Shown: in pieces, positions 1,740 through 16,926 of the stretch | Position numbering within the stretch: the stretch's first letter is position 1 | Layout of the letters: every line of letters starts with the position of its first letter | Assembly (NCBI GenBank): GCA_043823435.1 | Contig: JBDRAV010000016.1 | Location: 1,122 to 65,121, forward strand | Direction of reading: 5' to 3' | Length of the DNA: 64,000 nt | Origin: Candidatus Omnitrophota bacterium | Lineage (GTDB): Bacteria > Omnitrophota > Gorgyraeia > Gygaellales > Profunditerraquicolaceae | Notes under the pieces: generated by a model | Database searches by the model: none | Seen by the model: the letters and a program-made list of their open reading frames with translations, nothing else | What the model was told of the DNA's origin: nothing | Program-made: the position numbers and the translations under genes

Positions 1740-1904
1740 AGGGACGTCTTTAAATGTAATCGGAAAGCGTTTATGCTATTATTCGAAAGGGTGTCCCCTC
1801 GAGCGACATTTTTCATTCAACTGTCACCTTTTTCCTGTCTGCCCTGTCTGTCCTGACTGCTGTCAGGCAGGGGGAAGGCGGGGGTTGAATTCAATGGTGT
1901 CCCT
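1740..1904 (+). repeat. AGGGAC...GTCCCT-bounded composite element, copy R0 (165 nt)
   Basis: Begins AGGGACGTCTTTA (1740-1752). Contains AAAGGGTGTCCCC (1786-1798), CCTGTCTG tandem words (1834-1850) and the hairpin CCTGAC-tgct-GTCAGG (1852-1867). Ends GGTGTCCCT (1896-1904). Module order matches the copies at 12213 and 34936. Confidence 0.7.
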
Positions 1905-1919
1905 ACTTATTTTATCTGT

Positions 1920-1948
1920 TTGACTTTTTTAGGAAAGGATGTTATGAT
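1920..1948 (+). promoter_or_regulatory. Candidate sigma-70-type promoter for gatCAB
   Basis: TTGACT (1920-1925), 17-nt spacer, TATGAT (1943-1948), about 30 nt upstream of the gatC start. Confidence 0.45.
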
Positions 1949-1980
1949 TAAAAACTGCCGATTAATTAAGGAGAAGAGTG

Positions 1981-2268
1981 ATGGCGATAACAAAAGAAAC
2001 AGTGGAGCGCGTGGCGTATCTGGCACGTATTGATTTATCCCCCAAAGAGTTAGAGAAACTCTCTCATGAAATTAAAGAGATATTAAACTTTATAGATAAA
2101 TTGACGGAAGTAAATATAAAAGATATTGCCCCTACAAGCCATATCCTGCCTATTAATAATGTGTTAAGAGAGGATGATCCGGTTGCATCTTTGCCTTCCG
2201 ACAAAGCGCTGGAGAACGCCCCAAAAAAGCAGGGTAGCTTTTTTGGGGTGCCAAAAGTAATTGAATAA
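1981..2268 (+). CDS. gatC: Asp/Glu-tRNA amidotransferase subunit C
   Basis: 95 aa. ITKETVERVAYLARIDLSPKELEKL... is a typical GatC N-terminus. AAGGAG at 1968-1973 lies 7 nt before ATG 1981 (the track starts at the in-frame GTG 1978). Followed by gatA and gatB. Confidence 0.93.
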   Translation: MAITKETVERVAYLARIDLSPKELEKLSHEIKEILNFIDKLTEVNIKDIAPTSHILPINNVLREDDPVASLPSDKALENAPKKQGSFFGVPKVIE

Positions 2269-2270
2269 TT

Positions 2271-2298
2271 CAGTTATGAGTTGTGAACAGTGAGTTAT
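2271..2298 (+). repeat. 4 x 7-nt tandem array forming the gatC-gatA spacer
   Basis: CAGTTAT GAGTTGT GAACAGT GAGTTAT. The last unit carries the gatA ATG (2297-2299). Confidence 0.75.
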
Positions 2299-3769
2299 GA
2301 GAAATAATATAGAATTAAACAAGTTAACCGCACATGAGCTTATCGAGAAGATAAAATCAGGAGCAACCAAGCCCGGGGAGATAGTTAGTTCGTTAAAAAG
2401 AAGAATTAAGGATATAGACCATAAAATTAATGCCTACGTACGACATCTTGACTCTGAAGCCCTAGATTCCCAACTCCCAGCTTCCAGCTCCAATCTATAT
2501 TTAAAAGGCATACCTGTCTCTATCAAAGATAATATTTGCACTAAAGGTTATAATACCGAATGCTGCTCTAAGATCCTGGAGGGGTTTAATCCGCCGTACG
2601 ATGCCACAGTAATCAGGAAATTAAAAGAATCTGGTGCGACCGTATTCCCGGTAAAGACCAATATGGATGAGTTTGCCTTTGGTTCATCAACGGAGAATTC
2701 CCGCTATGGCCCGACACATAACCCCTGGGATTTAGAGACTGTTGCAGGTGGTTCTTCTGGAGGTTCGGCATCGGCAGTAGCTTCAGATGAGGCGATAATG
2801 GCCTTGGGTTCGGATACGGGCGGCTCTATCCGTCAACCTGCATCTTTCTGTGGCGTGGTCGGGCTTAAGCCTACTTATGGGAGGGTTTCACGTTATGGGT
2901 TGATTGCATTCGCCTCAAGCCTGGACCAGATCGGTCCCCTCACCAAAGATGTCAGGGATAGCGCGATCTTAATGAATGTCATTTCCGGATACGACCACTA
3001 TGATTCTACTTCCGTAAATATTGATGTGCCGGATTATACCGCATCATTGGGGGCGGATATCAAGGGATTAAAGATCGGCACTCCAAAGGAATATTTTATT
3101 GCTGGTATGGATAAAGAAGTCAAGATAATAGTGGAGGAAGCTATAGATAAACTAAAGAGCCTGGGAGCCGAGCATAAACCGGTTTCATTGCCGAATACCC
3201 GGCATGCAATACCGGTTTATTATGTTGTTGCTACGGCAGAGGCGAGCTCCAATTTAGCGCGCTTTGACGGAGTGCAGTATGGTTTTAGAACCGAGAGCCG
3301 AGAGCCGAGAACCGAGAACCGAGTGATAGATATGTATAAAGGGACACGCGGAGAAGGGTTTGGGCAGGAAGCCAAAAGAAGGATTATTCTTGGAACATTC
3401 GCTTTATCGCACGGATATTACGACGCATATTATCTGCGGGCTCTAAAAGTAAGGACCATGATAAAGCAGGATTTTGACAGGGCCTTTACAAAATTTGATT
3501 GTTTGGTTACCCCTACGTCCCCTACGCCCGCATTTAAAATAGGTGAAAAAGCAAAAGATCCCTTAGAGATGTACCTTTCGGATATATATACCATATCAGC
3601 GAATCTATCGGGGATACCGGCGATATCCGTACCCTGCGGTTTTACCAGTAAGGGGCTGCCGGTAGGATTGCAGATTCTGGCGAAGCCGTTTAACGAAGGA
3701 TTGTTGTTCAAGGCCGCTTATGCATATGAACAAAGCACGGAGTGGCATAAGATGAGCCCCAAATTATAA
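2297..3769 (+). CDS. gatA: Asp/Glu-tRNA amidotransferase subunit A (amidase family)
   Basis: 490 aa. Amidase signature GGSSGGSASAVAS..GSDTGGSIRQPASFCG. Lies between gatC and gatB. Contains two heptamer arrays (2468-2495, 3288-3322). Confidence 0.96.
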   Translation: MRNNIELNKLTAHELIEKIKSGATKPGEIVSSLKRRIKDIDHKINAYVRHLDSEALDSQLPASSSNLYLKGIPVSIKDNICTKGYNTECCSKILEGFNPPYDATVIRKLKESGATVFPVKTNMDEFAFGSSTENSRYGPTHNPWDLETVAGGSSGGSASAVASDEAIMALGSDTGGSIRQPASFCGVVGLKPTYGRVSRYGLIAFASSLDQIGPLTKDVRDSAILMNVISGYDHYDSTSVNIDVPDYTASLGADIKGLKIGTPKEYFIAGMDKEVKIIVEEAIDKLKSLGAEHKPVSLPNTRHAIPVYYVVATAEASSNLARFDGVQYGFRTESREPRTENRVIDMYKGTRGEGFGQEAKRRIILGTFALSHGYYDAYYLRALKVRTMIKQDFDRAFTKFDCLVTPTSPTPAFKIGEKAKDPLEMYLSDIYTISANLSGIPAISVPCGFTSKGLPVGLQILAKPFNEGLLFKAAYAYEQSTEWHKMSPKL

Positions 3770-3773
3770 GATA

Positions 3774-3853
3774 GCACCAGGTGCAAAGCCAATCGGGCAC
3801 CAGGTGCGAGATTAGGTTTGCAGACGGTACAAGATAGGATTGGCACCCGGTGC
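3774..3853. repeat. Phased array of the 11-bp palindrome GCACC-W-GGTGC (four sites, 23-nt period)
   Basis: GCACCAGGTGC at 3774 and 3797, a degenerate GCAGACGGTAC at 3820, and GCACCCGGTGC at 3843. Spacers contain CCAATCGG / GATTAGG / GGATTGG. Confidence 0.8.
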
Positions 3854-3865
3854 TAGGATAAAATT

Positions 3866-5284
3866 ATGTATGAAGCGGTGATAGGATTAGAGGTACATGT
3901 TCACTTAAACACAAAGACCAAGGCATTCTGCGGTTGTTCTACGGAATTCGGCGCAGAGCCAAACTCACAGACCTGTCCCGTATGTCTGGGGTTTCCGGGT
4001 AGCCTGCCGGTTTTAAACAAAGTCGCCCTTGAATATGCGATTAAGGTGGCGCTCGCCCTGGATTGCAGTGTCCAGGAATACACTAAATTTGACCGTAAGA
4101 ATTATTTCTATCCCGACCTGCCTAAAAATTATCAGATCTCCCAGTACGACCTTCCCGTATCCTTGGATGGTTTTCTGGATATGGAATCGCATGATGGGGT
4201 TAAACGCGTACGTATACGCCGCGTGCACCTGGAGGAGGATGCCGGGAAGCTGATTCATCAGGATCGCGAAAGTCTTGTGGATTTTAACCGCGCAGGGGTA
4301 CCACTGCTTGAAATAGTAAGCGAACCGGATATATCTTCTCCCCAAGAAGCACACGAATATCTGACCGCCCTAAAGAGCATTATTGAATACCTGGAAGTCT
4401 CTGATTGCGATATGGAGAAGGGTTCTCTACGATGCGACGCCAATATTTCAGTCAGGGAGAAGGGCGTAAAGGGGCTTGGAGTAAAAACAGAGTTAAAGAA
4501 CATGAATTCATTCAAGGCGGTAAAAGAAGCATTGGGGTTTGAAATAGAGCGCCAGACAGAATTATTAGATAAAGGAGGGGTCATCGTCCAGGAGACAAGG
4601 TTGTGGGACGTCAAGAGCCTGGAAACCTTATCCATGCGCACAAAGGAGGAGGCAAAGGATTACCGTTATTTTCCCGAGCCGGACTTGCCGCCATTTATAA
4701 TCACTAAAGAAAAGATTGAAGAAATAAGAAAATCCATTCCGGAGTTACCTAAAGAGAAGAAACAGAGATTCATGCAATGGATATCGGCTTCTTCTGCTAG
4801 CACCTTGGTTTCATCTAAAATAGACGCAGAGCTTAGCGAAAGATTGCTTCAGAATTACAGCAACAAGAAGCTGGTTGCCGATTGGCTTATTAATGTTGCT
4901 TCTTCTACAGCCAATAGCTTAAAATGCTCAATAACGCAACTGGAAGTTAAGGAGGAATATTATATCGAAATTTTTCGCTACTTAGACAAGGAGTCGATTT
5001 CTAATCTGACCGCGAAAGCAGTTTGGGATGAAGTGGTTAAGACTAAAAGACCGCCTTCTGAAATCATCAAAGAGAAAAACCTCATTCAGATTTCTGATGA
5101 GTCCGTACTTAAAGAAGACATAGAAAAAGTCATAAAAGAAAACCCTAAATCCGTAGAGGCCTTTAAAGCCGGCAAAGAGAATGCAGTGATGTTCTTAATC
5201 GGCCAGGTGATGAAAAAGACTCATGGTAAGGCCAATCCGAAGGTAATCCAGGATATATTAAGGAGGAGGTTGAAGGATGCGTAA
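3866..5284 (+). CDS. gatB: Asp/Glu-tRNA amidotransferase subunit B
   Basis: 472 aa. MYEAVIGLEVHVHLNTKTKAFCGC...CPVCLGFPGSLPVLN and the C-terminal GQVMKKTHGKANP are GatB hallmarks. Confidence 0.96.
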   Translation: MYEAVIGLEVHVHLNTKTKAFCGCSTEFGAEPNSQTCPVCLGFPGSLPVLNKVALEYAIKVALALDCSVQEYTKFDRKNYFYPDLPKNYQISQYDLPVSLDGFLDMESHDGVKRVRIRRVHLEEDAGKLIHQDRESLVDFNRAGVPLLEIVSEPDISSPQEAHEYLTALKSIIEYLEVSDCDMEKGSLRCDANISVREKGVKGLGVKTELKNMNSFKAVKEALGFEIERQTELLDKGGVIVQETRLWDVKSLETLSMRTKEEAKDYRYFPEPDLPPFIITKEKIEEIRKSIPELPKEKKQRFMQWISASSASTLVSSKIDAELSERLLQNYSNKKLVADWLINVASSTANSLKCSITQLEVKEEYYIEIFRYLDKESISNLTAKAVWDEVVKTKRPPSEIIKEKNLIQISDESVLKEDIEKVIKENPKSVEAFKAGKENAVMFLIGQVMKKTHGKANPKVIQDILRRRLKDA

Positions 5285-6566
5285 TAGAACTGCTGTGGTG
5301 ATAATCTCAGCTTTGCTGATCTTTGGGATTTATTCCATTGTTTCATCGGACGGGGACCAGAATAAGGCGCCCAAGGATACAAAAGACGACTTATACCGGC
5401 AGGTAGAGCTTTTTTCCGACACCTTGGCAATTATAAAATCCGAATATGTCGACGAAAGTGAGCCTCGTAGTTTAATTTATGGTGCCCTGAAGGGTATGCT
5501 TTCATCTCTTGACCCCCACAGCCAGTTTATGGACCCCGATACCTATAACGAATTGAAGGTAGATACGGAAGGGAAGTTCGGCGGCCTGGGTATAGAGATT
5601 ACCATAGCTGACGGATTGTTGACCGTCGTAACCCCCATAGAAGACACGCCGGCATGGAAAGCTGGGTTAAAGCCTAATGACAGGATTGTAAAGATCAACG
5701 GAGAATTAACCCGTGATATGACTCTCACGGAAGCAGTAAAGAGGCTAAGAGGTAATCCCGGAGAAGCGGTAAATATCACTATCTTGAGGGAGTCAGAAAA
5801 AAAGATATTGGATTTTAAGATAGTGCGCGATATTATCAAAGTGAACAAGATAAAAGAAACAAAGATCCTACAGGATAAGATCGGCTATATACGTCTGGCT
5901 GAATTCGGGGAGAGCAGCGCCAAAGATATGAACGCAGCTTTGGAGAGCTTAAAGCAGCAGGGGATGGATGCGCTTATACTGGATTTACGCAATAATCCCG
6001 GCGGGCTCCTTGACGCCGCAGTAAGGATTACCGGGAAATTTCTTGATAAAGATAAGTTGATTGTTTATACCAAAGGCCGTAAACCCAACCAGAGCCTGAA
6101 GTTTTATTCTGAGGAGAAACATCCTTTTACAGATATGCCTATGGCGGTACTGATAAATGAAGGCTCTGCTTCAGGCAGCGAAATCATGGCTGGGGCTTTC
6201 CAGGACCATAAGCGGGCCATAATATTAGGTACTAAATCATTCGGTAAGGGCTCGGTGCAGACGATAGTTCCGTTAAGCGATGGTTCTGCGCTTCGGCTTA
6301 CCACGAGCAGGTATTTTACTCCTTCAGGTAGACAGATACACGAGAAAGGTATAGTGCCTGATATAGTTGTAGAAGAAGGCAGGATAGAACTTACTGAAGA
6401 GAGTGTGCCCAAGATCCAGAAACCTGAAGAGATATTCGAGCAGATCGAACAGAAGGATAAGCCCGTGAAGAAAGAAGATTCTAAAGAATATACTTCCGAT
6501 AATCAGCTCATGCGGGCGGTGGATGTCTTAAAGGCGATCCGTATATATAAGGAAGACAGGAAATAA
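5277..6566 (+). CDS. ctpA: Carboxy-terminal processing protease (S41 family, PDZ domain)
   Basis: 429 aa. N-terminal membrane helix, PDZ region (GIEIT..DTPAWKAGLKPNDRIVKING), S41 catalytic region (LDLRNNPGG...SASGSEI...GTKSFGKGSVQ). Confidence 0.92.
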   Translation: MRNRTAVVIISALLIFGIYSIVSSDGDQNKAPKDTKDDLYRQVELFSDTLAIIKSEYVDESEPRSLIYGALKGMLSSLDPHSQFMDPDTYNELKVDTEGKFGGLGIEITIADGLLTVVTPIEDTPAWKAGLKPNDRIVKINGELTRDMTLTEAVKRLRGNPGEAVNITILRESEKKILDFKIVRDIIKVNKIKETKILQDKIGYIRLAEFGESSAKDMNAALESLKQQGMDALILDLRNNPGGLLDAAVRITGKFLDKDKLIVYTKGRKPNQSLKFYSEEKHPFTDMPMAVLINEGSASGSEIMAGAFQDHKRAIILGTKSFGKGSVQTIVPLSDGSALRLTTSRYFTPSGRQIHEKGIVPDIVVEEGRIELTEESVPKIQKPEEIFEQIEQKDKPVKKEDSKEYTSDNQLMRAVDVLKAIRIYKEDRK

Positions 6567-7358
6567 GTGAAAAGACGGCCCGTATACAAGATCCTGACCT
6601 TTATTTTATTGTCTGTGGTAATCATAGAAACCGTATTGCTTATACATCTGTGGATAAACCGGACCGTGTCCAGGAAGGCAGCCAAGATACCTGCGGTTAC
6701 AAAGAGCAGGATAGCAATAGTCATTGATGATTGGGGTTACAATCAGGATAATCTCAATATCCTGAATGAGATAAAATATCCTTTTACCGCTTCGGTTTTG
6801 CCCAGGCTTGATTATTCAAAGGAAGTTGCAAAAGAATTGCACGAAAATGGAGTCCAGGTCATGCTACATTTGCCTATGGAGCCCCGGGAAAGCTCAAGAT
6901 TAGAGAAGAATACTATACTTGTTTCTATGAGCGAACAGGAGATAAAGGGTATCATCGGGAAGGACCTGGCCGATATTCAATATGCGGTAGGTGTATCCAA
7001 TCATATGGGCTCCAAGGCTACCGAAGACCCTAAAACTATGGGTATCGTGTTTAAAGAACTGAAGAAGAGGAATCTTTTTTTTCTGGATAGCGTAGTTTCC
7101 TCCAAAACCATCTGTTCCGGGCTTGCGGAGAAATCCGGCTTAGGTTTTATAAAAAGAGACGTCTTTATTGATAATAATGAAGACCCCGGATATATAAAGG
7201 AGCAGTTCTATAAATTAAAAAGAAAGGCCTTGTTGCGCGGCTATGCCGTAGGTGTGGGCCATGACCGCAGGAATACCCTGGAGGTTATGAAGGAGATAAT
7301 GCCGCAAATAGAAAAAGAAGGATATGAATTTGTTTTTATTTCTGAGATGGTGAAATAA
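6567..7358 (+). CDS. Divergent polysaccharide deacetylase family protein (YibQ-like)
   Basis: 263 aa. N-terminal membrane helix, then IAIVIDDWGYN...VMLHLPMEP...SNHMGS, typical of the YibQ family. The ctp-yibQ adjacency is common. GTG start. Confidence 0.85.
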   Translation: MKRRPVYKILTFILLSVVIIETVLLIHLWINRTVSRKAAKIPAVTKSRIAIVIDDWGYNQDNLNILNEIKYPFTASVLPRLDYSKEVAKELHENGVQVMLHLPMEPRESSRLEKNTILVSMSEQEIKGIIGKDLADIQYAVGVSNHMGSKATEDPKTMGIVFKELKKRNLFFLDSVVSSKTICSGLAEKSGLGFIKRDVFIDNNEDPGYIKEQFYKLKRKALLRGYAVGVGHDRRNTLEVMKEIMPQIEKEGYEFVFISEMVK

Positions 7359-8338
7359 TGTATGTTTTAGGGATTGAAACTTCCTGCGATGAGACTGCTG
7401 CTTCGGTAGTGATGGACGGTGAGGCTGTTCTTTCCAATATAGTCAGTTCAAGCCTTAATGAGCATAAGAAATACGGAGGGATCGTACCTGAGATAGCCTC
7501 CAGGATGCACCTTGAGAGTATCTGCGGGGTTGTGGATTGCGCCGTAAAGGAGGCAAGGGTTAAATTGAACAGGATAGGTCTGGTGAGCGTGACCTCCGGA
7601 CCCGGCCTGGCAGGCTCTTTGCTTGTAGGTATATCTTTTGCTAAATCCTTAAGCCTCGGCCTCGGGGTTCCTTTAATGGAAGTAGACCATGTGGTGAGCC
7701 ATATGTATGCAAATCTTCTAAATGCGTCTGCCTTGCGGATGCCTTTTATTGCCCTTATTGTTTCAGGTGGACATACCTCTTTGTTTTATGTAAAAGATTT
7801 TGATAAAATATATCCTTTAGGTAGGACTTATGATGACGCCTGCGGAGAGGCATTTGACAAGGTTGCTAAGATCTTGGGGCTCGGCTATCCCGGGGGCCCG
7901 GTAATTGAACGCCTGGCCAGGTCCGGGGACCCCCAGAAGTTTAAATTTAAATGTTCTAATACTGACCGTCCGTTGGATTTCAGTTTTAGCGGTATAAAGA
8001 CGGCAGTGCTATATACCGTAAGAAAGCATTCACAAGCCGGCAGCAGATTCATCCGTGATATCGCCGCTTCCTTTCAGGAATCAGTAGTGGATACGCTTGT
8101 CAACAAATCATTATTGGCCTGCAGGATCAAAAGAACAAAACGCCTTGTTATAGGAGGAGGCGTAGCAGCGAACAACAGGTTAAGAGAAAAATTGCGTAGC
8201 GAAGCAGGGAGGGATGGTCTGGATATATTTTTTCCACCCACGAGGCTCTGCCTGGACAACGCGGCAATGGTCGCGGGTTTAGGGTACCGCCTCTTCAGGA
8301 AAGGTTACAGGTCAGGGTTGGATTTGAACACGGGTTAA
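7358..8338 (+). CDS. tsaD: tRNA N6-adenosine threonylcarbamoyltransferase
   Basis: 326 aa. MYVLGIETSCDETAASVV...SGGHT...GYPGGP motifs. Confidence 0.95.
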   Translation: MYVLGIETSCDETAASVVMDGEAVLSNIVSSSLNEHKKYGGIVPEIASRMHLESICGVVDCAVKEARVKLNRIGLVSVTSGPGLAGSLLVGISFAKSLSLGLGVPLMEVDHVVSHMYANLLNASALRMPFIALIVSGGHTSLFYVKDFDKIYPLGRTYDDACGEAFDKVAKILGLGYPGGPVIERLARSGDPQKFKFKCSNTDRPLDFSFSGIKTAVLYTVRKHSQAGSRFIRDIAASFQESVVDTLVNKSLLACRIKRTKRLVIGGGVAANNRLREKLRSEAGRDGLDIFFPPTRLCLDNAAMVAGLGYRLFRKGYRSGLDLNTG

Positions 8339-8413
8339 ATTAGCAGACCTTTATCTAAAACCTGCCCTGTTATTATTTCCGTAAGCTGCCTGTTAATTCA
8401 GAAGGAGGTTTTG

Positions 8414-8866
8414 ATGGATATGCTTACTGATACAGAGATTATTATGCGTTTGGTTTTCGCGCTTGTCCTGAGTGGTTTTATCGGATTAGAGCGCCAGATA
8501 CACCGCAGGACTGCGGGGCTACGCACACATATCCTAGTAAGTTTGGGTTCCTGTCTTATCATGTTGACATCACTGTACATTTTTGCTATATATAAAAATG
8601 AAACCCCTTTGGATCCAGGCCGTATTGCCGCAGGCGTGATTACAGGCATAGGGTTTTTAGGGGCAGGTACGATTATACGGGAGAGAGAAGGCATAAAGGG
8701 CTTGACTACCGCTGCGAGTCTCTGGGTAGTCGCGGGTGTAGGGCTTGCGACCGGATGCGGTTTTTATAAGGCAGCCCTTTTTACCACTGTTTTAGCCTTA
8801 ATAACTCTTCTCTGCTTAAGGTATCTTGAAAAGATGATACTTGGAAAAGAAGAGCAGGCGGGATGA
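8414..8866 (+). CDS. MgtC/SapB family membrane protein
   Basis: About 150 aa. GFIGLERQIHRRTAGLRTHILVSLGS...GVITGIGFLGAGTI. GAAGGAGG at 8401-8408. The start could be TTG 8411 or ATG 8414. Confidence 0.88.
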   Translation: MDMLTDTEIIMRLVFALVLSGFIGLERQIHRRTAGLRTHILVSLGSCLIMLTSLYIFAIYKNETPLDPGRIAAGVITGIGFLGAGTIIREREGIKGLTTAASLWVVAGVGLATGCGFYKAALFTTVLALITLLCLRYLEKMILGKEEQAG

Positions 8867-8885
8867 TTACAAAGGAGGTGGGGTG

Positions 8886-9389
8886 ATGGCGTTTAAAAAG
8901 AAGATTGAAGAGAAGATTTTGGATGTGGATGTAGATATGCAGGGCAATATGGTCTTTAAAGACCCGGTTAACCTGCGTATCAACGGTAAGTTCGAAGGGA
9001 TTTTGCAGATGAGGGGAAACCTTACAATCGCATCAACGGCTGTCGTCTCGGCGGATATTATAGGCGAAAATATTATCATTGACGGTAGGGTCAAAGGCAA
9101 AATAGTGGCAAAGGAGAGGTTGACGCTTTTGCCCGCAGCTGTCGTGGAGGGGGAGATATACCCTTCTAAACTTAATGTTGCGGAAGGCGCGGTGCTGGAG
9201 GGCAGGTGCTGTATGCTTCATGATTTTATGAGTGCCGATGAACTCGCGCATTATTTAGAGGTAGATTTGAATTCGATACTGGAATGGGCAAACTCCGGCA
9301 AAATGCCCGGTTTGAAAGAGGGTAATAACTGGAGGTTTGAAAGGAAGACTATTGATTCTTGGGTTGCCTCGGGTAAAGTAGGAAAATAA
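8886..9389 (+). CDS. Bactofilin-domain protein with a C-terminal excisionase-type helix-turn-helix (HTH_17-like)
   Basis: 167 aa from ATG 8886 (AGGAGG at 8873-8878; the track start 8841 overlaps the MgtC-family gene). Bactofilin beta-helix repeats (INGKFEGIL..GNLTIAST..ADIIGENIIIDGRVKGKIVAKERLTLLPAAVVEGEIYPSKLNVAEGAVLEG). C-terminus is ADELAHYLEVDLNSILEWANSGKMPGLKEGNNWRFERKTIDSWV. Confidence 0.75.
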   Translation: MAFKKKIEEKILDVDVDMQGNMVFKDPVNLRINGKFEGILQMRGNLTIASTAVVSADIIGENIIIDGRVKGKIVAKERLTLLPAAVVEGEIYPSKLNVAEGAVLEGRCCMLHDFMSADELAHYLEVDLNSILEWANSGKMPGLKEGNNWRFERKTIDSWVASGKVGK

Positions 9390-9703
9390 TGACAGAAAAA
9401 CTTTTAACCATAAGGGATGTTTCTCTGACCTTGGGTATTTCCGAGAAAGAGGTGATGGACCTTGTAGAAAATAAGCAACTGGAGGCTTACAGGGTAGGAG
9501 GGGTGTATCTTAGGTTCAAGCAGGAGCAGATAACGGAGTTCAGGAAGTCTTCTAAACCCCTTGCACATAAACACAAAACCGCGGTTTCACATAAGTACGC
9601 CTTAAAAGACTCAATCAGCGATTTCTTCTATTTTAATGATTTCTATATATTAGCTGCTTTGATCATATTGCTTATTCTGGTTATTATATTCCGGGGTTAT
9701 TGA
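9389..9703 (+). CDS. Excisionase-type HTH protein with a C-terminal transmembrane helix
   Basis: 104 aa. LLTIRDVSLTLGISEKEVMDLVENKQLEAYRVGGVYLRFKQEQITEF, followed by the hydrophobic FYILAALIILLILVIIF. The start overlaps the upstream stop (TAATG). Confidence 0.7.
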   Translation: MTEKLLTIRDVSLTLGISEKEVMDLVENKQLEAYRVGGVYLRFKQEQITEFRKSSKPLAHKHKTAVSHKYALKDSISDFFYFNDFYILAALIILLILVIIFRGY

Positions 9704-9745
9704 TCCAGCCGGTAGCCAGCCGCAAAAGAATCTTATAAATACATA

Positions 9746-10411
9746 ATGAATCGTAAACAGAGCTATTGCCATTCGGGATTCGTTAATCTTGATATAGACA
9801 GGAAAGCGCGCCGAGGCCATTCTGAAGTGGTGTATTCACCCGGAAAGACCAAGATACAGCTTAAAGAGATCGCGCGTGAGTTGTTCAGGAATAAACAGGA
9901 CCTATTGTTTACCAGGCTTGAGAAAGACAGCTTTAATTATCTAAAGAAGTCCTTTCCAAAATTAAAATATAATATCCCGGCTAAGTTAGGTTATTTGGCG
10001 AAAAAGAGCAGGATTCAGAAGGGATTGGTCGCGGTTATTTCAGCGGGTACTTCAGATATGCCGGTTGCCGAGGAGGCGTCGGTGACTTTAGAGCTGATGG
10101 GTAACCGGGTAGTCAAATTCTACGATCTTGGCGTCGCCGGAGTGCACAGGCTGATGAATAATATAGGCCTGATAAGGAAGGCAAAGGTAATTATCGTGGT
10201 CGCGGGTATGGAGGGCGCATTGGCCAGTATCGTGAGCGGGCTGGTAAGTTCTCCGGTTATCGCGGTACCTACTAGTTGCGGGTACGGCGCTAATTTTGGC
10301 GGACTCTCGGCTTTATTGACAATGCTTAACTCATGTTCGGCCGGGGTCACTGTGGTAAACATCGATAATGGTTTCGGCGCTGGTTATTTCGCCAGCCTGA
10401 TAAATAAGTAG
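9746..10411 (+). CDS. larB: Nickel-pincer cofactor biosynthesis protein LarB (PurE-like carboxylase/hydrolase)
   Basis: 221 aa. SAGTSDMPVAEEA...VAGMEGALASIVSGLVSSPVIAVPTSCGYGANFGGLSALLTMLNSC..VVNIDNGFGAG matches the LarB family pattern. Confidence 0.88.
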   Translation: MNRKQSYCHSGFVNLDIDRKARRGHSEVVYSPGKTKIQLKEIARELFRNKQDLLFTRLEKDSFNYLKKSFPKLKYNIPAKLGYLAKKSRIQKGLVAVISAGTSDMPVAEEASVTLELMGNRVVKFYDLGVAGVHRLMNNIGLIRKAKVIIVVAGMEGALASIVSGLVSSPVIAVPTSCGYGANFGGLSALLTMLNSCSAGVTVVNIDNGFGAGYFASLINK

Positions 10412-10412
10412 T

Positions 10413-10440
10413 TAGTAGATAGCAGATAGTAGTTAGGGTG
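10413..10440 (+). repeat. 4 x 7-nt tandem array forming the larB-FmdE spacer
   Basis: TAGTAGA TAGCAGA TAGTAGT TAGGGTG. The last unit carries the GTG at 10438. Confidence 0.7.
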
Positions 10441-10863
10441 ATGAGAAATAATAAAATTACTTTAAAGGAAGCAGAAAGATTCCACGGCCATTTGGGTCCC
10501 TATCTGGTCTTGGGGCTTTTAGCAGGAGAAATGGCACTCAAAAAACTTGGTTGCAGAAAATACTTTGGTTTAAATGCTAGAATTTGGGGGGCTGTTAGAA
10601 AACCAAAGTCTTGTCTTATCGATGGACTGCAATTGTCTGCCGGAACAACCTATGGAAAAGGAAATATTGTGAAATTAAACGGTTCAGGGATCAAAATAGA
10701 ATTTTGCAATAGCGTAAATCATAGAACGGTTGCTTTAAGCCTAAAGGATAATATTATCCGAATGTTAGATAATGCAGAAAGTCATAAAGAATCGGAAATT
10801 TTGGCAAAGGAATTATATAAAACAAAGTGGGATAATGTTTTTAACTTAACCACTAATTACTAA
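10438..10863 (+). CDS. FmdE-domain protein (formylmethanofuran dehydrogenase subunit E-like)
   Basis: 141 aa. The FHGHLGPYLVLGL motif is characteristic of the FmdE domain. Start is GTG 10438 or ATG 10441. Confidence 0.7.
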   Translation: MMRNNKITLKEAERFHGHLGPYLVLGLLAGEMALKKLGCRKYFGLNARIWGAVRKPKSCLIDGLQLSAGTTYGKGNIVKLNGSGIKIEFCNSVNHRTVALSLKDNIIRMLDNAESHKESEILAKELYKTKWDNVFNLTTNY

Positions 10864-10885
10864 CTGCTATAACCTGGAGTTTAAT

Positions 10886-12214
10886 ATGGGGTTTTCTGGT
10901 CTGGATATCTATAAACTTTTACCTAAGACTAACTGCCGTGAGTGCGGTTTTGTAACCTGCCTGGCTTTTGCCATGCAATTAGCTAAAAAAGCGGTAAGTA
11001 TCGATAAATGCCCTTACCTAAGCGCTGAAGCCAAGAGCGCGCTTGAAGCTTCTGCGCAGCCACCCATAAAATTAGTTACCTTAGGCGAAGGGGATAACCG
11101 GTTAGAGATGGGTAATGAGACCGTTCTCTTCCGCCACGAAGAAAAATTCTATCATCCGGCCGGGCTGGGTTTTATCATTGAAGATAGCTTATCGCCCGAT
11201 GAGATAAAAAAGCGGCTGGAGAGGATTGGCCAGTTGAAATTTGAGCGCGTAGGCCAGGAGCTGAATGTCAACGCTGTAGCCGTTAAACAGACCGCAGATA
11301 AGAAAAAATTTATTGAGGTGGTCCAGGCAGTTATAAACAATACGCATCTGGCATTGATATTGATGAGCGATGAACCGCAGGCATTAAAAGAAGCATTAAA
11401 TATATCTGCTGCAAAGAAGCCTTTGATTTACCGCTCCACGAAAGATAATGCTGCGGAGTTCATCAAATTAGCGCAGGAGTTCAAGGTACCGCTTGTTGCT
11501 TCAGCCGCGGACTTAGAAACCCTTTCTAACCTAACCAAAGAATTAAACGGCCAGGGAGTAAGTGATTTAGTTTTGGATACAGGTGCGAAGCCGGTCAAAG
11601 ATAAGATTTGGGATTTGACTCAGATTAGGAGGCAGGCGCTTAAGAAATCTAACCGCGGCCTCGGGTATCCTGTTTTGGCAATAATAGATTCCAAGGACCC
11701 TTACGAGGAAGCGATGGAGGCCGCGACCTATATTTCGAAATATGCCAGCATTGTTTTAATGTCGGGCATTGAATCATGGCAGGTGTTGACACTTTTGACT
11801 CTTAGGCAGAATATATATACGGACCCGCAGAAACCTTTACAGATAGAACCGAAGCTTTATCCTGTGGGGGCCGTAACCAAGAATTCGCCTGTATTGGTGA
11901 CCACTAATTTTTCACTGACTTATTATACCGTATTAGGAGAAGTGGAGGCGAGCAAGATTCCCGCTTACATTGTAAGCGTGGATACCGAGGGTATGTCTGT
12001 ATTAACTGGCTGGGCAGCTGAGAAATTTACCCCTGAGAAAATATCAGATTCATTGAATAAGTTTGGGCTTAAAGAAGCGGTTTCGCATACCCGGATGATT
12101 ATCCCGGGGTATGTAGCGGTAATCAGCGGAGATCTGGAGGATAAATCCGGATGGCAGGTAATGGTAGGCCCGAAAGAAGCAGCAGGCATCCCTTCGTTCT
12201 TAAAGAACTTATAG
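10886..12214 (+). CDS. acsC: Corrinoid iron-sulfur protein large subunit (acetyl-CoA decarbonylase/synthase gamma, AcsC/CdhE)
   Basis: 442 aa. N-terminal 4Fe-4S cysteine motif TNCRECGFVTCLAFAMQLAKKAVSIDKCPYL. Size and context (RACo, cooC, acsD, acsE downstream). Confidence 0.9.
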   Translation: MGFSGLDIYKLLPKTNCRECGFVTCLAFAMQLAKKAVSIDKCPYLSAEAKSALEASAQPPIKLVTLGEGDNRLEMGNETVLFRHEEKFYHPAGLGFIIEDSLSPDEIKKRLERIGQLKFERVGQELNVNAVAVKQTADKKKFIEVVQAVINNTHLALILMSDEPQALKEALNISAAKKPLIYRSTKDNAAEFIKLAQEFKVPLVASAADLETLSNLTKELNGQGVSDLVLDTGAKPVKDKIWDLTQIRRQALKKSNRGLGYPVLAIIDSKDPYEEAMEAATYISKYASIVLMSGIESWQVLTLLTLRQNIYTDPQKPLQIEPKLYPVGAVTKNSPVLVTTNFSLTYYTVLGEVEASKIPAYIVSVDTEGMSVLTGWAAEKFTPEKISDSLNKFGLKEAVSHTRMIIPGYVAVISGDLEDKSGWQVMVGPKEAAGIPSFLKNL

Positions 12215-12394
12215 GGGCGTCTTTATTATTAAAACAGAGATGATTCTAATCCAAAGCAGGGACGACTTTGTTGCCAAAGAAAAGGGTGTCCCTTTTAAGA
12301 TTTTATTTTTAGGGGACACCTTTCGGATTGACAGAAGAAACGGCTTTCCTTTTAGATTCAAAGGCGTCCCCCGATTGAATTTAAAGACGTCCCT
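12213..12394 (+). repeat. AGGGAC...GTCCCT-bounded composite element, copy R1 (182 nt)
   Basis: AGGGGCGTCTTTA (12213-12225, overlapping the acsC TAG stop), GGGACGACTTT (12259-12269), AAAGGGTGTCCC (12281-12292), GGGGACACCTTT (12312-12323), AAAGGCGTCCCC (12360-12371), TAAAGACGTCCCT (12382-12394). The boxes can pair as three nested helices. Confidence 0.8.
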
Positions 12395-12410
12395 AAAATA
12401 AGCAAGAGAG

Positions 12411-14336
12411 ATGGAAAAATTAAAAGTTACATTTTATCCGGATAATAAAACCATAGAAGTAGATAAGGGTAAGACTATCCTTTCTGCGGCCATTTCCGCG
12501 GGGGTTTATGTTAATTCCGGTTGTGGCGGTGATGGCGTATGCGGAAGATGCAAGGTTATTTTAAAGAATGGCCAGGTTGTCACCCATCCCAGCGGTAGGA
12601 TAAGTCTCCAAGAGAGAAAACGGGGGATTTATCTGGCTTGCCTGACGACTATACAAAGCGATTTAGAAGTAGTAATTCCTCCCGAGTCGCGGCTCGACTT
12701 AGAAAAATTAAGCCCGGAGGAAATGGACATCAGGCTAAAAGGCCTCTATACGGAATCGGAAGACGTAGAATCAGCGGTATCTATTTTGGGCGAAGAAATT
12801 TTTACGCACTCGCCTTTAGCAACAAAGCTCTATTTGGAATTACCGCCTCCGGACTTAGAAGATAAAATCAGCGATTTGGAAAGGCTCTACCGGCAGATAC
12901 GGCGCATCCAGGATATCCCGATTATGCAGACAGGATTGAGTAATGTCAGGCGTTTAGGCGAAGTTCTGCGCTCTGCGGATTGGAAGGTCACCGTAACCTT
13001 GGGCAAGAGAAACGGGACAGCCGAAATTGTGCTTATTGAATCAGGAGATACTTCCAAAAAGAACTTTGGCCTGTGTTTTGATATAGGCACCACAACCATA
13101 TCCGGGCAGTTAGTAGACTTAAACAATAAAAAGGTCATCGGCACAAAAGCCACCTACAATAAGCAGGCTACATTCGGAAGCGACATTATCACCCGCATTA
13201 TTTATGCGCAGGAACCGGATGGCCTGGAGAAGCTGCATCATGCCGTAATTGACGGGATGAACCAGATGATTCAGGAATTAATCCGCGAAAACAATATAGA
13301 TTTAAATGACGTCAACTGTGTCTTGTGCGCAGGCAACACTACTATGGTGCACCTTTTATTGCGTGTTGACCCTACCTATATCAGGAGAGAACCCTATGTG
13401 CCTACGGCTAATTTTGTTCCGACTATCCGCGCTGCGGAGGCGGGGATAAAGATAAATCCCCGCGGCCTTTTATCCTGTATTCCAGGGATCTCCAGTTATG
13501 TAGGCGGGGATGTTACAGCGGGAGTTTTATCCTGCGGCTTGGACAGTATAGAGGATTTAAGTATCCTGATTGACATCGGCACCAACGGCGAAATAGTCTT
13601 GGGTAGCCGGGATTTTCTCATTTCGGCTTCTGCGTCTGCCGGGCCTGCCTTTGAAGGTTCGGGCGTAAGTTGTGGCATGCGTTCCAGCCGCGGCGCAATC
13701 CAGAAAGTCAAGATTACGCCCGAAGATTTTAAGGTTACTTATAGTACTATCGGCGAAGCCAAGCCGCGCGGCATATGCGGTTCAGGTTACATTGATATTA
13801 TTGCCCAGATGCTTAAGGCAAACTTATTGGATAAGAACGGCAAGATAAAATCGCTTAAGCATGAACGTATCCGCGAAGGAGAAGGCGGAAAGGAATTTGT
13901 AGTTGTGTTTAAGGACGAATCCGAGGCAAGTTTGGATATTGTTATCACTGAAGCAGACATTGAGAATATCAAGCGGGCAAAGGCCGCGATTTATTCTGCT
14001 GCCGCCGCTTTAGTCAAGCATATGGATTTGGATTTCTCTAAGATAAAAAAGATTTTTGTCGCCGGAGGATTTGGTACGTCTATTAATATAGATAGCGCCG
14101 TAGTCATAGGATTATTGCCGGATCTAGAAAGATCTAGATTTATTTTTGTAGGTAATAGTTCTCTGGCTGGAGCGCGCCAGGCACTTTTGTCTTACGATGC
14201 CATTAAGAAGACAGACGAAATCGCCAAAAAGATAACTTATTTTGAATTATCCGTAGAGCCAGGATATATGGACGAATATATGGCAGCGTTATTCTTTCCT
14301 CATACGGATTTGTCGAAATTTCCGAGCGTAAAATAA
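12411..14336 (+). CDS. Corrinoid activation/regeneration protein (RACo/AcsV type: 2Fe-2S ferredoxin domain plus ASKHA ATPase)
   Basis: 641 aa. N-terminal plant-type ferredoxin motif CGGDGVCGRCKV. ASKHA-like DIGTTT / DIGTNGE motifs. Occupies the position of orf7/RACo in acs clusters. Confidence 0.88.
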   Translation: MEKLKVTFYPDNKTIEVDKGKTILSAAISAGVYVNSGCGGDGVCGRCKVILKNGQVVTHPSGRISLQERKRGIYLACLTTIQSDLEVVIPPESRLDLEKLSPEEMDIRLKGLYTESEDVESAVSILGEEIFTHSPLATKLYLELPPPDLEDKISDLERLYRQIRRIQDIPIMQTGLSNVRRLGEVLRSADWKVTVTLGKRNGTAEIVLIESGDTSKKNFGLCFDIGTTTISGQLVDLNNKKVIGTKATYNKQATFGSDIITRIIYAQEPDGLEKLHHAVIDGMNQMIQELIRENNIDLNDVNCVLCAGNTTMVHLLLRVDPTYIRREPYVPTANFVPTIRAAEAGIKINPRGLLSCIPGISSYVGGDVTAGVLSCGLDSIEDLSILIDIGTNGEIVLGSRDFLISASASAGPAFEGSGVSCGMRSSRGAIQKVKITPEDFKVTYSTIGEAKPRGICGSGYIDIIAQMLKANLLDKNGKIKSLKHERIREGEGGKEFVVVFKDESEASLDIVITEADIENIKRAKAAIYSAAAALVKHMDLDFSKIKKIFVAGGFGTSINIDSAVVIGLLPDLERSRFIFVGNSSLAGARQALLSYDAIKKTDEIAKKITYFELSVEPGYMDEYMAALFFPHTDLSKFPSVK

Positions 14337-14339
14337 AAG

Positions 14340-15092
14340 ATGGGTTATACCATTGCAATAGCAGGTAAGGGCGGTACGGGTAAGACTACCACTGCCGCGC
14401 TTATAGTGAGGTTACTTAAAGAGAAGAGGGTACGTTCAATATTGGCAGTAGATGCTGACCCGAACAATAATTTAGCAGAGGTTCTCGGAGCAGAAATAAA
14501 AGAGACAGTCGGTTCTATATTGGATGATGTCTGCCAGCATCCGGAGAATATCCCCTCCGGCATGTCCAAAGATATGTTCATTGAATACCAGATCCAGACC
14601 TCTATAACCGAAGGGGATGGTTTTGATATCTTGGCAATGGGCAGGCCGGAAGGCCCAGGATGTTATTGCTATGTGAATAACCTCTTAAGGAATATGATCG
14701 GTAAACTGATCAAAGATTATGATTATGTCGTAATTGATAACGAAGCGGGCCTGGAACATCTCTCTCGGCGCACAACCCGTGCCTGCGATGCGCTGGTTAT
14801 CATTTCAGATACAACAGCCGTAGGGTTAAAGTCAGCTGAGAGGATAAGCGGTTTAGTCAGGGAGTTGAATATTAAGGTCGGTAAAACTCTCTTGCTTATA
14901 AATTCTTCTGATAAGGCCCCGAAGATAGATTGGATAGAGAAAGCGGGAGTGGATTATATAGGTAATATGCCGAGAGATCCTGGGATAACTGAAATAAGCT
15001 TAAACGGCAGTTCGCTTATGGCGCTTAAGGATGACGCGGTAAGCCTTGCTGCTTTACGCACAATAGGAGATAATCTATGGCGCAGGAATTAA
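14340..15092 (+). CDS. cooC: CooC/AcsF-type nickel-insertion ATPase
   Basis: 250 aa. P-loop IAIAGKGGTGKTT, CxC motif GPGCYCY typical of CooC-family maturation ATPases. Confidence 0.88.
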   Translation: MGYTIAIAGKGGTGKTTTAALIVRLLKEKRVRSILAVDADPNNNLAEVLGAEIKETVGSILDDVCQHPENIPSGMSKDMFIEYQIQTSITEGDGFDILAMGRPEGPGCYCYVNNLLRNMIGKLIKDYDYVVIDNEAGLEHLSRRTTRACDALVIISDTTAVGLKSAERISGLVRELNIKVGKTLLLINSSDKAPKIDWIEKAGVDYIGNMPRDPGITEISLNGSSLMALKDDAVSLAALRTIGDNLWRRN

Positions 15093-16048
15093 TGTTGGAG
15101 AAGTGGTCAGGTGCTGTATCCGTTGTAAATATCGGCGCAACCAAGGAAGAGGGTGGAACGCGCTCCAGGGTTGTCCGGATAGGAGGTCAGGCGACACTAC
15201 CTTTCTTATTTCAGGAAGGAGCGATACCCAATAAGCCCGTAATTGCCTTTGAAATCTGGGATTTTGCGCCCGGAGATTGGCCACAGGGATTAAATAAAGC
15301 TTATGCCGGTGTTTTTGATGATCCGCTTGTATGGGCTGAAGAATGCGTTAAAAAACATAAGGCAGAATTGCTCTGCGTAAAATTACAGGGAGCGCATCCG
15401 GACTTCGGCAATAAATCTGCCGATGAAGAAACTAAATTCATCAGCGAGTTATTAAAAAAGGTAGATGTGCCTTTGATAATTTTAGGATGCGGAGATGATG
15501 ATAAGGATAACCTGGTTATTCCTGCGTGCTGTGAAGCTGCCAAAGGAGAGCGGTGCCTTGTAGGCAGCGCTGTACAGGATAACTATAAGACTATGACCGC
15601 AGCGGCTCTGGCCGACGGACATAACATAGTAGCGGAATCCCCGATCGATATAAATATCGCCAAGCAGCTAAATATCCTGATTTCCGATATGGGCTTACCC
15701 TTAGAGCGCATCGTTATTAACTCTACAATAGGCGCGCTGGGTTACGGATTGGAATACGCATATTCTATAATGGAGCGCGCAAGGCTGGCAGCTCTTTCCG
15801 GAGATAAAATGATGGCGTGCCCTTTTATCTGCCTCGTGGGCCAGGAGGCATGGCGGGCAAAAGAGGCAAAGGCCTCGGCAAACGAATTCCCTTCCTGGGG
15901 CCCAGAGTCAGAGCGCGGTATAGCCTGGGAGGCTATTACCGCCACAGCCTTGATTCAGGCCGGAGGCGATATTTTAGTAATGCGGCATCCCAAGGCTATA
16001 GAGAAAGTAAATAACTATATAGATAATTTGACAAGTATTAACGCATAG
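15077..16048 (+). CDS. acsD: Corrinoid iron-sulfur protein small subunit (acetyl-CoA decarbonylase/synthase delta, AcsD/CdhD)
   Basis: 323 aa. Size and position between cooC/acsF and acsE. TIM-barrel-like CdhD pattern (assignment rests mainly on context and overall resemblance). Confidence 0.8.
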   Translation: MAQELMLEKWSGAVSVVNIGATKEEGGTRSRVVRIGGQATLPFLFQEGAIPNKPVIAFEIWDFAPGDWPQGLNKAYAGVFDDPLVWAEECVKKHKAELLCVKLQGAHPDFGNKSADEETKFISELLKKVDVPLIILGCGDDDKDNLVIPACCEAAKGERCLVGSAVQDNYKTMTAAALADGHNIVAESPIDINIAKQLNILISDMGLPLERIVINSTIGALGYGLEYAYSIMERARLAALSGDKMMACPFICLVGQEAWRAKEAKASANEFPSWGPESERGIAWEAITATALIQAGGDILVMRHPKAIEKVNNYIDNLTSINA

Positions 16049-16120
16049 CGTAGAGCGTTTAGTTCTACTATACGCTAACCGCTACCCCTGCCTGCCGGCA
16101 GGCAGCGCTAAACGCTAAAG
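16046..16120. repeat. acsD-acsE spacer built from heptamer words plus an 18-nt perfect palindrome
   Basis: TAGCGTA GAGCGTT TAGTTCT (16046-16066), the perfect palindrome CTGCCTGCCGGCAGGCAG (16088-16105), and CGCTAAA CGCTAAA (16106-16119). The 14-mer ATAGCGTAGAGCGT and the word CGCTAAACGCTAAA recur at 32998-33061. Confidence 0.8.
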
Positions 16121-16136
16121 ACTGGAGCTTAAGGAT

Positions 16137-16925
16137 ATGTTTATAATCGGTGAACTTGTAAACGGGATGTACAAAAATATAGGCCAGGCGATAAAAGATA
16201 AGGATAAGGCCGTTATACAAAAATGCGCCCTTGACCAGATTAAGGCGGGCGCGGACGCCTTGGATGTTAATTGCGGGCCAGCATCGCGTAAACCCGCTGA
16301 AGATATCCAATGGTTAGTTCAGGCAATACAGGAGGTAACCGATAAGCCTATAGCCTTGGATTCGAGCAAGCTGCAGGTTATTGAATCGGGCTTAGAGGTA
16401 ATAAAAAACAAGACAATTATAAATTCCACCACTGCTGATCCGGAAAAATTAGAGGTACTGGTGCCTCTGGCAAAGAAATATAATTGTAAGCTTATTGGTC
16501 TGACCATCAGCGCAAAGGGTATCCCCCAGAATAAGGACCAGCGGTTAGAATTAGCAGCAATCATTGTTTCCGCTTGCGCTGAACATGGGTTTCCTGTCGA
16601 GGACCTGTATCTTGACCCGATAGTTATGCCGGTGAATGTGGCACAGGCGCAGATGAAGGACATCCTAGAAACTATCCATGAATTTAAGATTATTTCCGAT
16701 CCTGCCCCCAAAAGCATAGTTGGGTTAAGTAATGTGTCGCAGGGGACATGCGTACGCAGCCTGGTGAACCGCATATTCCTGACTATGGCAGTGGCTTTTG
16801 GGCTGGACGCTGCTATATTTGATCCGTTAGACAAAGAGCTGCTGGATGCAGCGATTACCGCGGAATTGATTTTAAATAAACAGATATACTGCGACTCTTT
16901 TTTGGATTCATATAGGAAGAAATAA
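16137..16925 (+). CDS. acsE: Methyltetrahydrofolate:corrinoid/iron-sulfur protein methyltransferase (pterin-binding domain)
   Basis: 262 aa. Pterin-binding (DHPS-like) barrel pattern GADALDVN...INS...GLSNVS. Terminal position of the acs cluster. Confidence 0.87.
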   Translation: MFIIGELVNGMYKNIGQAIKDKDKAVIQKCALDQIKAGADALDVNCGPASRKPAEDIQWLVQAIQEVTDKPIALDSSKLQVIESGLEVIKNKTIINSTTADPEKLEVLVPLAKKYNCKLIGLTISAKGIPQNKDQRLELAAIIVSACAEHGFPVEDLYLDPIVMPVNVAQAQMKDILETIHEFKIISDPAPKSIVGLSNVSQGTCVRSLVNRIFLTMAVAFGLDAAIFDPLDKELLDAAITAELILNKQIYCDSFLDSYRKK

Positions 16926-16926
16926 A

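Follow-up and report, generated by a model that had tools for sequence, protein, structure and literature searches.

Organization of the locus

Two adjacent genes, here called A and B, were analysed in a 64,000-nucleotide stretch of DNA from a Candidatus Omnitrophota bacterium (contig JBDRAV010000016.1), which is referred to as the window and whose own numbering is used throughout. Gene A encodes a bactofilin fused to a C-terminal winged helix of the HTH_17 family (HTH, helix-turn-helix), and gene B encodes a second HTH_17 winged helix followed by a C-terminal transmembrane helix. Bactofilins are β-helical polymers with disordered tails, and they recruit their clients by poorly defined contacts. 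The features of the locus are listed below with the evidence for each.

8872..8879, + strand: Shine-Dalgarno-like sequence AAGGAGGT, 6 nucleotides 5' of the ATG of gene A (read from the sequence)
8886..9389, + strand: gene A, bactofilin-winged-helix fusion of 167 amino acids (Pfam Bactofilin and HTH_17)
8886..8915, + strand: N-terminal peptide MAFKKKIEEK of gene A, resembling a bactofilin membrane-targeting sequence and putatively membrane-binding (conservation)
8916..9209, + strand: bactofilin β-helix of gene A, residues 11-108 (Pfam E 2.1e-22; Foldseek)
9225..9374, + strand: C-terminal HTH_17 winged helix of gene A, residues 114-163, acidic (Pfam E 1.2e-9; fold matches)
9389..9703, + strand: gene B, tail-anchored winged-helix protein of 104 amino acids (homologue 3' of A in 89 of 90 loci)
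9401..9547, + strand: HTH_17 winged helix of gene B, residues 5-53 (Pfam 29.6 bits; AlphaFold2 fold)
9548..9619, + strand: variable basic linker of gene B, residues 54-77 (poor conservation, mean charge +3.9, low model confidence)
9620..9646, + strand: juxtamembrane motif DFFYFNDFY of gene B, residues 78-86 (conservation)
9641..9691, + strand: C-terminal transmembrane helix of gene B, residues 85-101, followed by RGY (Kyte-Doolittle; AlphaFold2)
8411..8866, + strand: MgtC-domain membrane protein of 151 amino acids (Pfam MgtC E 5.8e-42), a common neighbour 5' of gene A

The start of gene A was placed at the ATG at 8886 and not at the TTG at 8841, since AAGGAGGT lies at 8872-8879 and the homologues begin with MAF at a length of about 167 residues. 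As read from the sequence, gene A ends with the TAA at 9387-9389 and gene B begins with the ATG at 9389-9391, the two genes overlapping by one base within TAATG. An earlier annotation made from the letters alone (the original prediction) had described this overlap and regarded the genes as translationally coupled. Its coordinates and frames proved exact, and the overlap is present in the window, but by our own start calls start/stop overlaps occur in only 2 of the 89 related loci, and coupling was therefore rejected as a conserved trait of the family. The gap between A and B has a median of 15 nucleotides and measures at most 30 nucleotides in 68 of these loci. Gene A follows mgtC at a spacing of 19 nucleotides, and promoter-like and terminator-like signals around the pair were no more common than in shuffled sequence.

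The bactofilin part of gene A

Residues 11-108 of A match the Pfam Bactofilin family (PF04519/IPR007607) with E 2.1e-22 and 79.6 bits against a gathering score of 27.9. The AlphaFold2 (AF2) model consists of a β-helix followed by an α-α-β-β-α winged helix, with a mean predicted local distance difference test score (pLDDT) of 85 that rises to 90-97 over most of the β-helix domain. Foldseek matched this β-helix to BacA (2n3d) and TtBac (6rib), with TM-scores normalized to the target (TMt) of 0.84 and 0.88, respectively. Leu104 of A aligns with the polymerization-interface residues Phe130 of BacA and Phe105 of TtBac; the column of BacA Phe130 is hydrophobic in 60 of 60 family members (Phe in 47, Leu in 12, Ile in 1), and the substitution F130R in BacA abolishes both polymerization and membrane binding (PMC12448750).

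At the N terminus, Met1, Ala2 and Phe3 are invariant in the core clade, and Lys5 and Lys6 are nearly so. The motif MAF or MAL followed by Lys or Arg opens 80 of 89 A homologues, in which the net charge of residues 1-10 averages +1.8. This peptide is disordered in the AF2 model, and its MAFKKK resembles the global membrane-targeting consensus of bactofilins, MFSKKKK (PMC12448750), although the order of the residues differs. Judged by its sequence, A appears to have kept the features that are typical of bactofilins, namely an N terminus like a membrane-targeting sequence (MTS) and a hydrophobic polymerization residue. By every feature examined, it is a genuine member of the bactofilin family.

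The β-helix and the winged helix of A are joined by a linker of about 5-7 residues (5 in the window protein), and the distance from the conserved Cys108 to the start of the HTH region is 7 residues in 43 of 60 members. This short spacing implies that the folded domain sits at the C-terminal polymerization end. At the junction itself (9207..9218, residues 108-111), Cys108 is present in 57 and Met110 in all of the 60 members, a near-invariance that spans lineages only about 45-50% identical overall; the window protein carries Cys-Cys at residues 108-109.

The two winged helices and their DNA-reading residues

Residues 114-163 of A belong to HTH_17 (PF12728; E 1.2e-9, 38.8 bits against a gathering score of 27), and A also scores 34.2 against the cut-off of 28.8 for TIGR01764 ('excise'). 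For residues 5-53 of B, the match to HTH_17 is marginal (E 8.5e-7, 29.6 bits against 27), and the TIGR01764 score of 27.0 lies just under the cut-off. The assignment of B, marginal by hidden Markov model (HMM), is nevertheless backed by its AF2 model, which Foldseek matched to the winged helices of RacA, BldC and Xis with TMt of 0.67-0.88.

The winged-helix order α1-α2-β1-β2-α3 is correct in the models of both proteins, and TMt to BldC is 0.75-0.88 for the two domains. Both match BldC, RdfS, the Xis proteins of Pukovnik and Tn916, RacA, MerR-family regulators and CbpM in Foldseek; the winged helix of B additionally matches DafA, and its best matches include the DNA-binding domain of RacA. Among these structural neighbours, CbpM and DafA are MerR-like folds that bind proteins and not DNA. 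The domain content given by the original prediction, a bactofilin with HTH_17 in A and HTH_17 in B, was thus upheld by the Pfam HMMs and by AF2/Foldseek. Its description of the two HTH domains as paralogous holds insofar as they share a Pfam family, but their relationship is no more than distant (hhalign, 13% identity, probability 69%), and on these values a recent duplication within the pair was rejected.

A further candidate was the MADS anti-phage protein MAD1 (NF047737; PADLOC mad1), which was the best NCBIfam match and was rejected with 49.5 and 27.5 bits against a cut-off of 80. Membership in MADS was rejected likewise, as the PADLOC matches were weak (E 6e-4 and 5e-6) and the neighbours are housekeeping genes without a defence context.

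Concerning the residues that read DNA, positions were mapped by the HMMER alignment of A to BldC and by family alignments of 90 A and 87 B sequences. Arg30 and Lys26 are the base-reading residues of BldC; its phosphate contacts come from Thr27, Thr29, Lys33 and Trp31, and the side chains that fill the minor groove are His46, Arg47 and Arg48. BldC loses DNA binding upon R30A or H46E, and RacA uses an arginine equivalent to Arg30 (PMC5859096). The position of Arg30 is acidic in 85 of 90 A sequences (Glu in 76 and Asp in 9, with a basic residue in 3; Glu133 in the window) and in 73 of 87 B sequences (Asp in 61 and Glu in 12, with Asn in 8 and Lys in 3; Asp24 in the window). At the position of Lys33, 77 of 90 A sequences have Asn and 78 of 87 B sequences have Glu (Glu27 in the window); at that of Lys26, A has Asn or Ser and B keeps the lysine. 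In A, Ser or Asn stands at the position of His46 and Trp at that of Arg47; Arg48 is kept as Lys or Arg.

Without exception, the 90 A sequences have a winged helix of negative net charge, from -6 to -1, whereas that of six DNA-binding comparator domains ranges from +2 to +6. The charge of the B winged helix extends from -2 to +8 and is mostly positive. In the window's clade this domain is close to neutral (0 in the window itself) and its recognition helix acidic (-1 to -3); in 6 of 9 divergent lineages the domain reaches +4 to +8. The charges of the A winged helix and of B, with its mostly positive winged helix and basic linker, are complementary. Since the equivalents of Arg30 and Lys33 are replaced and A is acidic, canonical reading of the major groove appears unlikely for A anywhere in the family and for B in the window's clade. 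By sequence and fold A belongs to HTH_17, but it does not have the family's set of basic DNA-contact residues. The search of representatives also returned proteins with tandem HTH_17 repeats (P0371 and P0290, of 417 amino acids with seven repeats and 231 amino acids with three), which have basic recognition helices, unlike A and B.

Gene B beyond the winged helix

In the AF2 model of B (pLDDT 72), a disordered linker joins the winged helix to one long, two-segment helix, and pLDDT is highest in the helix at residues 84-103. The linker, residues 54-77, is poorly conserved and of low pLDDT; its net charge averages +3.9 in 32 homologues. Conservation within B is highest in the motif DFFYFNDFY, which was found in 84 of 89 loci and in which Asp78, Phe79, Phe82, Asn83, Asp84, Phe85 and Tyr86 are invariant in the 32 homologues. 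The transmembrane helix assigned to B by the original prediction was recovered at the C terminus of all 86 complete homologues (best 19-residue Kyte-Doolittle window of at least 1.9), with 0-4 residues after it. No Pfam family covers the linker, the motif or the membrane part of B in the Pfam scan. The motif sits at the cytoplasmic membrane interface, where it could, speculatively, meet the basic MAFKKK of A.

Distribution of the fusion protein

A and B are each 100% identical to Omnitrophota proteins at NCBI that derive from metagenome-assembled genomes (MAGs) and are encoded on a contig of 90,783 base pairs. The entry identical to B is annotated as 'helix-turn-helix domain-containing protein', and databases already give such proteins generic labels, 'polymer-forming cytoskeletal protein' or 'excisionase family DNA binding protein'. 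In a 90%-clustered database A has 1,546 relatives, the best 120 of which are 73-100% identical to it and have both Pfam domains, at lengths of 165-181 amino acids (nearly all 167-168). When 50%-identity representatives were searched exhaustively, about 20 further full-length clusters emerged at 26-54% identity, and a profile of these divergent clusters recovered further fusion proteins of 164-190 amino acids, whose named members are all Omnitrophota; the deepest named clusters are labelled 'PVC group bacterium'. The bactofilin-HTH_17 fusion is found phylum-wide, and every named member belongs to Omnitrophota or the PVC group.

A relative of A is encoded in 262 species-level GTDB genomes, of which the 80 loci best by similarity to A were kept; these are from Omnitrophota-type MAGs or single-amplified genomes, a few of them deposited under other labels. 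Together with 7 divergent lineages, two deep lineages (L089 and L090) and a further locus (L088), they make up the 90 loci compared in this study. A is better conserved than any neighbour, the near-universal TsaD included, in 66 of 79 loci, a rank that is inflated by the choice of the 80 loci for their similarity to A. Within the 64-kb window, family HMMs run against all six-frame open reading frames (ORFs) found no other bactofilin or HTH_17 paralogue.

Linkage of the two genes

A homologue of B lies directly 3' of A in 89 of the 90 loci, including all 80 GTDB species loci, in which it is on the same strand. The 80 close loci share the syntenic block S41 protease-YibQ-TsaD-MgtC-A-B-LarB-(FmdE)-AcsC-like-RACo, and their A-B linkage alone could therefore be mere gene order. 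However, the pair is intact in 7 of 7 divergent lineages although the genes 3' of B change; these are LarB, SNase/TilS/FtsH, ExbB/ExbD, a nucleoside transporter or a Cpn10-like gene. In L089 and L090, A is followed by an HTH_17 protein of 97-99 amino acids with a transmembrane helix, and both flanks differ from those of the main clade. Upstream of the pair, L089 encodes DnaE and a hybrid kinase, and L090 an SPOR-domain protein and a TPR/PDZ protein; downstream of it, L089 encodes a chorismate-binding enzyme. Since the pair persists in the divergent and deep lineages where the flanks change, its co-occurrence as a by-product of synteny was rejected. Co-occurrence outside this genome had been set beforehand as a test of the original prediction, and the pair clearly passed it, being found with changed flanks as well as with conserved ones.

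The sole locus without B is L088, which encodes the most divergent A (26% identity) and lies about 280 base pairs from a contig end. In L088:290-5567 (JGI 3300009777 contig Ga0105164_10002154), the A homologue closes a co-directional gene cluster that encodes a volactin-family actin homologue (Pfam E 2e-91), a 465-amino-acid ParA/MipZ-like ATPase with a C-terminal AMPK1_CBM/CBM48-like domain, a 209-amino-acid protein of no family and two further unannotated proteins. The gene after the A homologue encodes a membrane or signal-peptide protein and not an HTH protein. This cluster looks like a cytoskeleton or segregation gene cluster.

Neighbouring genes and window context

In 76 of 80 close and 5 of 7 divergent loci, the gene immediately 5' of A is mgtC; L082, L087, L089 and L090 lack mgtC but keep A-B. 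The product of mgtC consists of the MgtC/SapB domain alone and, at a mean identity of 71%, is itself well conserved. It may belong to the module as a dispensable third partner, or it may simply be a neighbour that has stayed in place. Genes of the envelope recur further upstream. In the main clade they encode a PDZ-containing C-terminal processing protease of family S41 and a deacetylase of the YibQ type, and in L090 the SPOR-domain and TPR/PDZ proteins. This recurrence hints at an envelope role but could be gene order alone. Within about 6 kb of the pair, no parA, parB, smc, PadC or similar segregation gene was found in the 89 pair-bearing loci.

Downstream of B (9746..14336) lie genes for LarB (NCBIfam equivalog, 283.9 bits), an FmdE-domain protein, a CdhD/AcsC-like corrinoid Fe-S protein and a RACo-type corrinoid activase. 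These genes are parts of the nickel-pincer cofactor pathway and of a Wood-Ljungdahl-type set, and they are kept in most of the 80 genomes. The window (1..64000) is extremely co-oriented, as all gene-like ORFs of at least 150 amino acids and all five tRNA genes (Met, Thr, Tyr, Gly and Pro) are on the + strand.

Proposed function of the pair

We tentatively propose, at somewhat short of an even chance, that A and B form an Omnitrophota-specific two-gene module in which a membrane-associated bactofilin scaffold docks the bitopic protein B through its winged helix. A would polymerize at the membrane. In place of the usual disordered tail, it would present a folded, acidic winged helix of the MerR/excisionase type beside the C-terminal polymerization interface, and in the non-polar filament these winged helices would be arranged in pairs at each tail-to-tail junction. 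The winged helix of A would then be a built-in docking module and not a DNA reader, the cytoplasmic winged helix and basic linker of B would bind it, and B would act as an extra membrane anchor or as a client positioned by the filament. This proposal is supported by the domain architecture and predicted folds, the bactofilin-like features of A, the linkage that is independent of the flanks, the missing DNA-reading residues and the complementary charges of the two proteins. Precedents are PbpC-BacA, PadC-BacP, BacR-BacE/F and, reportedly, RodZ-MreB, together with the protein-binding MerR-like folds CbpM and DafA among the structural neighbours.

Like BacA and BacB of Caulobacter crescentus, A has a β-helix, a short basic/hydrophobic N-terminal peptide and a hydrophobic polymerization residue; the C-terminal tail is disordered in BacA, whereas it is a folded winged helix in A. 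RodZ is said to have been described by van den Ent et al. in 2010 as a bitopic protein whose cytoplasmic N-terminal HTH binds the cytoskeletal polymer MreB and not DNA. The resemblance to B is one of analogy only, as RodZ has an XRE-type HTH, a periplasmic domain and an actin-like partner, whereas B has the HTH_17 fold and 0-4 residues after the transmembrane helix and accompanies a bactofilin.

B is a single-pass membrane protein like PbpC, a bitopic client that binds BacA by its cytoplasmic N-terminal part near the C-terminal polymerization interface and that can anchor the filament, replacing the MTS when over-produced (PMC12448750). Unlike B, which has no periplasmic domain, PbpC is a large periplasmic peptidoglycan synthase, and bacA and pbpC are not a fixed adjacent pair. 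In Bacillus subtilis/Geobacillus, the HTH protein BacR (YhbD) is encoded in the bactofilin operon and binds BacE/F, which blocks its DNA binding, and the AlphaFold 3 interface lies near the HTH (PMC13649987); contacts between bactofilins and HTH proteins thus do occur. BacR is, however, a soluble, separate, DNA-binding protein of the DUF4004 and not the HTH_17 family, whereas in the present pair the bactofilin itself carries one HTH and a membrane helix anchors the other, and in the window's clade neither has the DNA-reading residues. No DUF4004 match was obtained for A or B in a Pfam scan with E up to 1.

Several points weigh against docking. The very short linker might allow the winged helix of A to cap the end of the β-helix, which would hinder polymerization. 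The recognition helices are neutral or basic in some divergent lineages, most clearly in L089, where the HTH of B reaches +8. Residues of the wings stay basic (Lys144, Arg/Lys150 and Arg153 in A; Lys20, Arg/Lys35, Arg42 and Lys44 in B), the nearest structural relatives of both domains are the DNA-bound BldC, RacA, Xis and RdfS, and the charge comparison rests on only six DNA-binding domains. Further, the contact between A and B is itself one that we infer.

Alternative explanations

The original prediction saw in the pair a tether between DNA, filament and membrane, for instance in positioning the chromosome or nucleoid. The winged helices of A, B or both would bind chromosomal DNA, and the filament and the anchor would hold the nucleoid or a locus at the membrane, by analogy to RacA-DivIVA or BacNOP-PadC-ParB. 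We regard this function as unlikely, although it has several points in its favour. Both proteins carry HTH_17 domains with DNA-bound BldC, RacA, Xis and RdfS as their best fold matches. BldC and Xis oligomerize head-to-tail on DNA (PMC5859096), and Xis, BldC and RdfS oligomerize along DNA (PMC5859096; PMC11963761), which a filament could template. The HTH and linker of B are basic, strongly so in divergent lineages (+4 to +8), and the most divergent A homologue adjoins a volactin-family actin and a ParA-like ATPase.

However, the HTH of A is acidic in every sequence, the equivalent of Arg30 is Glu or Asp in both proteins, and that of Lys33 is Asn in A and Glu in B. The ParA-bearing locus, L088, is the very one without B, and the pair itself has no parA, parB, smc or similar gene beside it in 89 loci; neither ParABS nor other segregation genes were found with the pair in the main clade. 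The function assigned to the pair by the original prediction is not supported by these data, whereas the architecture, the linkage and the apparent novelty that it described hold.

The known systems invoked in this analogy also differ from the pair. In Myxococcus xanthus, the BacNOP scaffold is tied by its C-terminal region to the DNA-organizing proteins ParB and ParA (PMC5703909; PMC12448750), but this link is indirect and uses the adaptor PadC, which binds the long disordered tail of BacP, and neither PadC nor ParA or ParB genes lie beside A-B within the distance and loci searched. Among solved folds, those of RacA, the chromosome anchor of Bacillus subtilis, and of BldC/Xis come nearest to both winged helices. 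RacA connects DNA with a polar scaffold, and the likeness of A and B to it is one of fold only: RacA, BldC and Xis are basic and read DNA with the arginine that is Glu or Asp in A and B, none of them is fused to a bactofilin or a membrane helix, and the AF2 model predicts no coiled-coil of the RacA type. A is not a member of the RacA, PadC/ParB, RodZ, DUF4004 or MADS families. A tether free of adaptors, in which a filament bearing nucleic-acid-binding winged helices, together with B, pins the nucleoid or a locus to the membrane of the ultra-small Omnitrophota cells, appears rather doubtful; it would use a non-canonical DNA-binding surface or the basic domain of B.

Another explanation refines the docking proposal by naming a cellular role, that of a scaffold for the envelope or for division. 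The pair would position envelope-remodelling enzymes, with B as a RodZ-like adaptor and with winged helices that serve purely for protein-protein contact. Envelope genes do recur upstream (the S41/PDZ protease and YibQ, and the SPOR and TPR/PDZ proteins of L090), and most bactofilins studied position envelope enzymes, their clients being typically membrane-bound peptidoglycan enzymes (PMC12448750). On the other hand, with a periplasmic part of 0-4 residues B itself cannot contact the wall, and the recurrence could be a matter of gene order only, as TsaD and GatCAB stand in the same run and the neighbours in L089 are unrelated. We consider this specific role improbable.

A switch of the BacR type, in which B and perhaps A would be transcription factors and the sequestration of B at the membrane or by the filament would control expression, with the acidic winged helix of A as a competitor or DNA mimic, is very improbable: BacR does bind DNA and is titrated off it by bactofilins (PMC13649987), the HTH of B is basic in 6 of 9 divergent lineages and the charges of A and B are complementary, but B is permanently tail-anchored without a sensor domain, in the window's clade it has an acidic recognition helix (-1 to -3), the 19 nucleotides between mgtC and A leave no room for an operator, promoter-like and terminator-like counts are at the level of chance, and DUF4004 is matched by neither protein.

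Significance

In the literature searched, outside which most subscription journals lay, we found no described bactofilin fused to a folded HTH or DNA-binding domain, as the original prediction had supposed, and no paper that combines bactofilin with Omnitrophota, excisionase or HTH_17. Within that literature, A-B is a real, undescribed and conserved gene pair. An uncultured phylum thus carries, throughout, a bactofilin with a folded winged-helix tail, followed in 89 of 90 loci by a tail-anchored partner of the same fold.

With 167 and 104 residues, the pair is a compact two-protein system in which the interface between a bactofilin and its client could be mapped structurally, and it may be another case of an HTH fold re-used for protein-protein contact. 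Were the DNA tether true, A would be the first bactofilin that binds DNA itself. The strong conservation of A suggests an important role in the cell biology of Omnitrophota, about which almost nothing is known.

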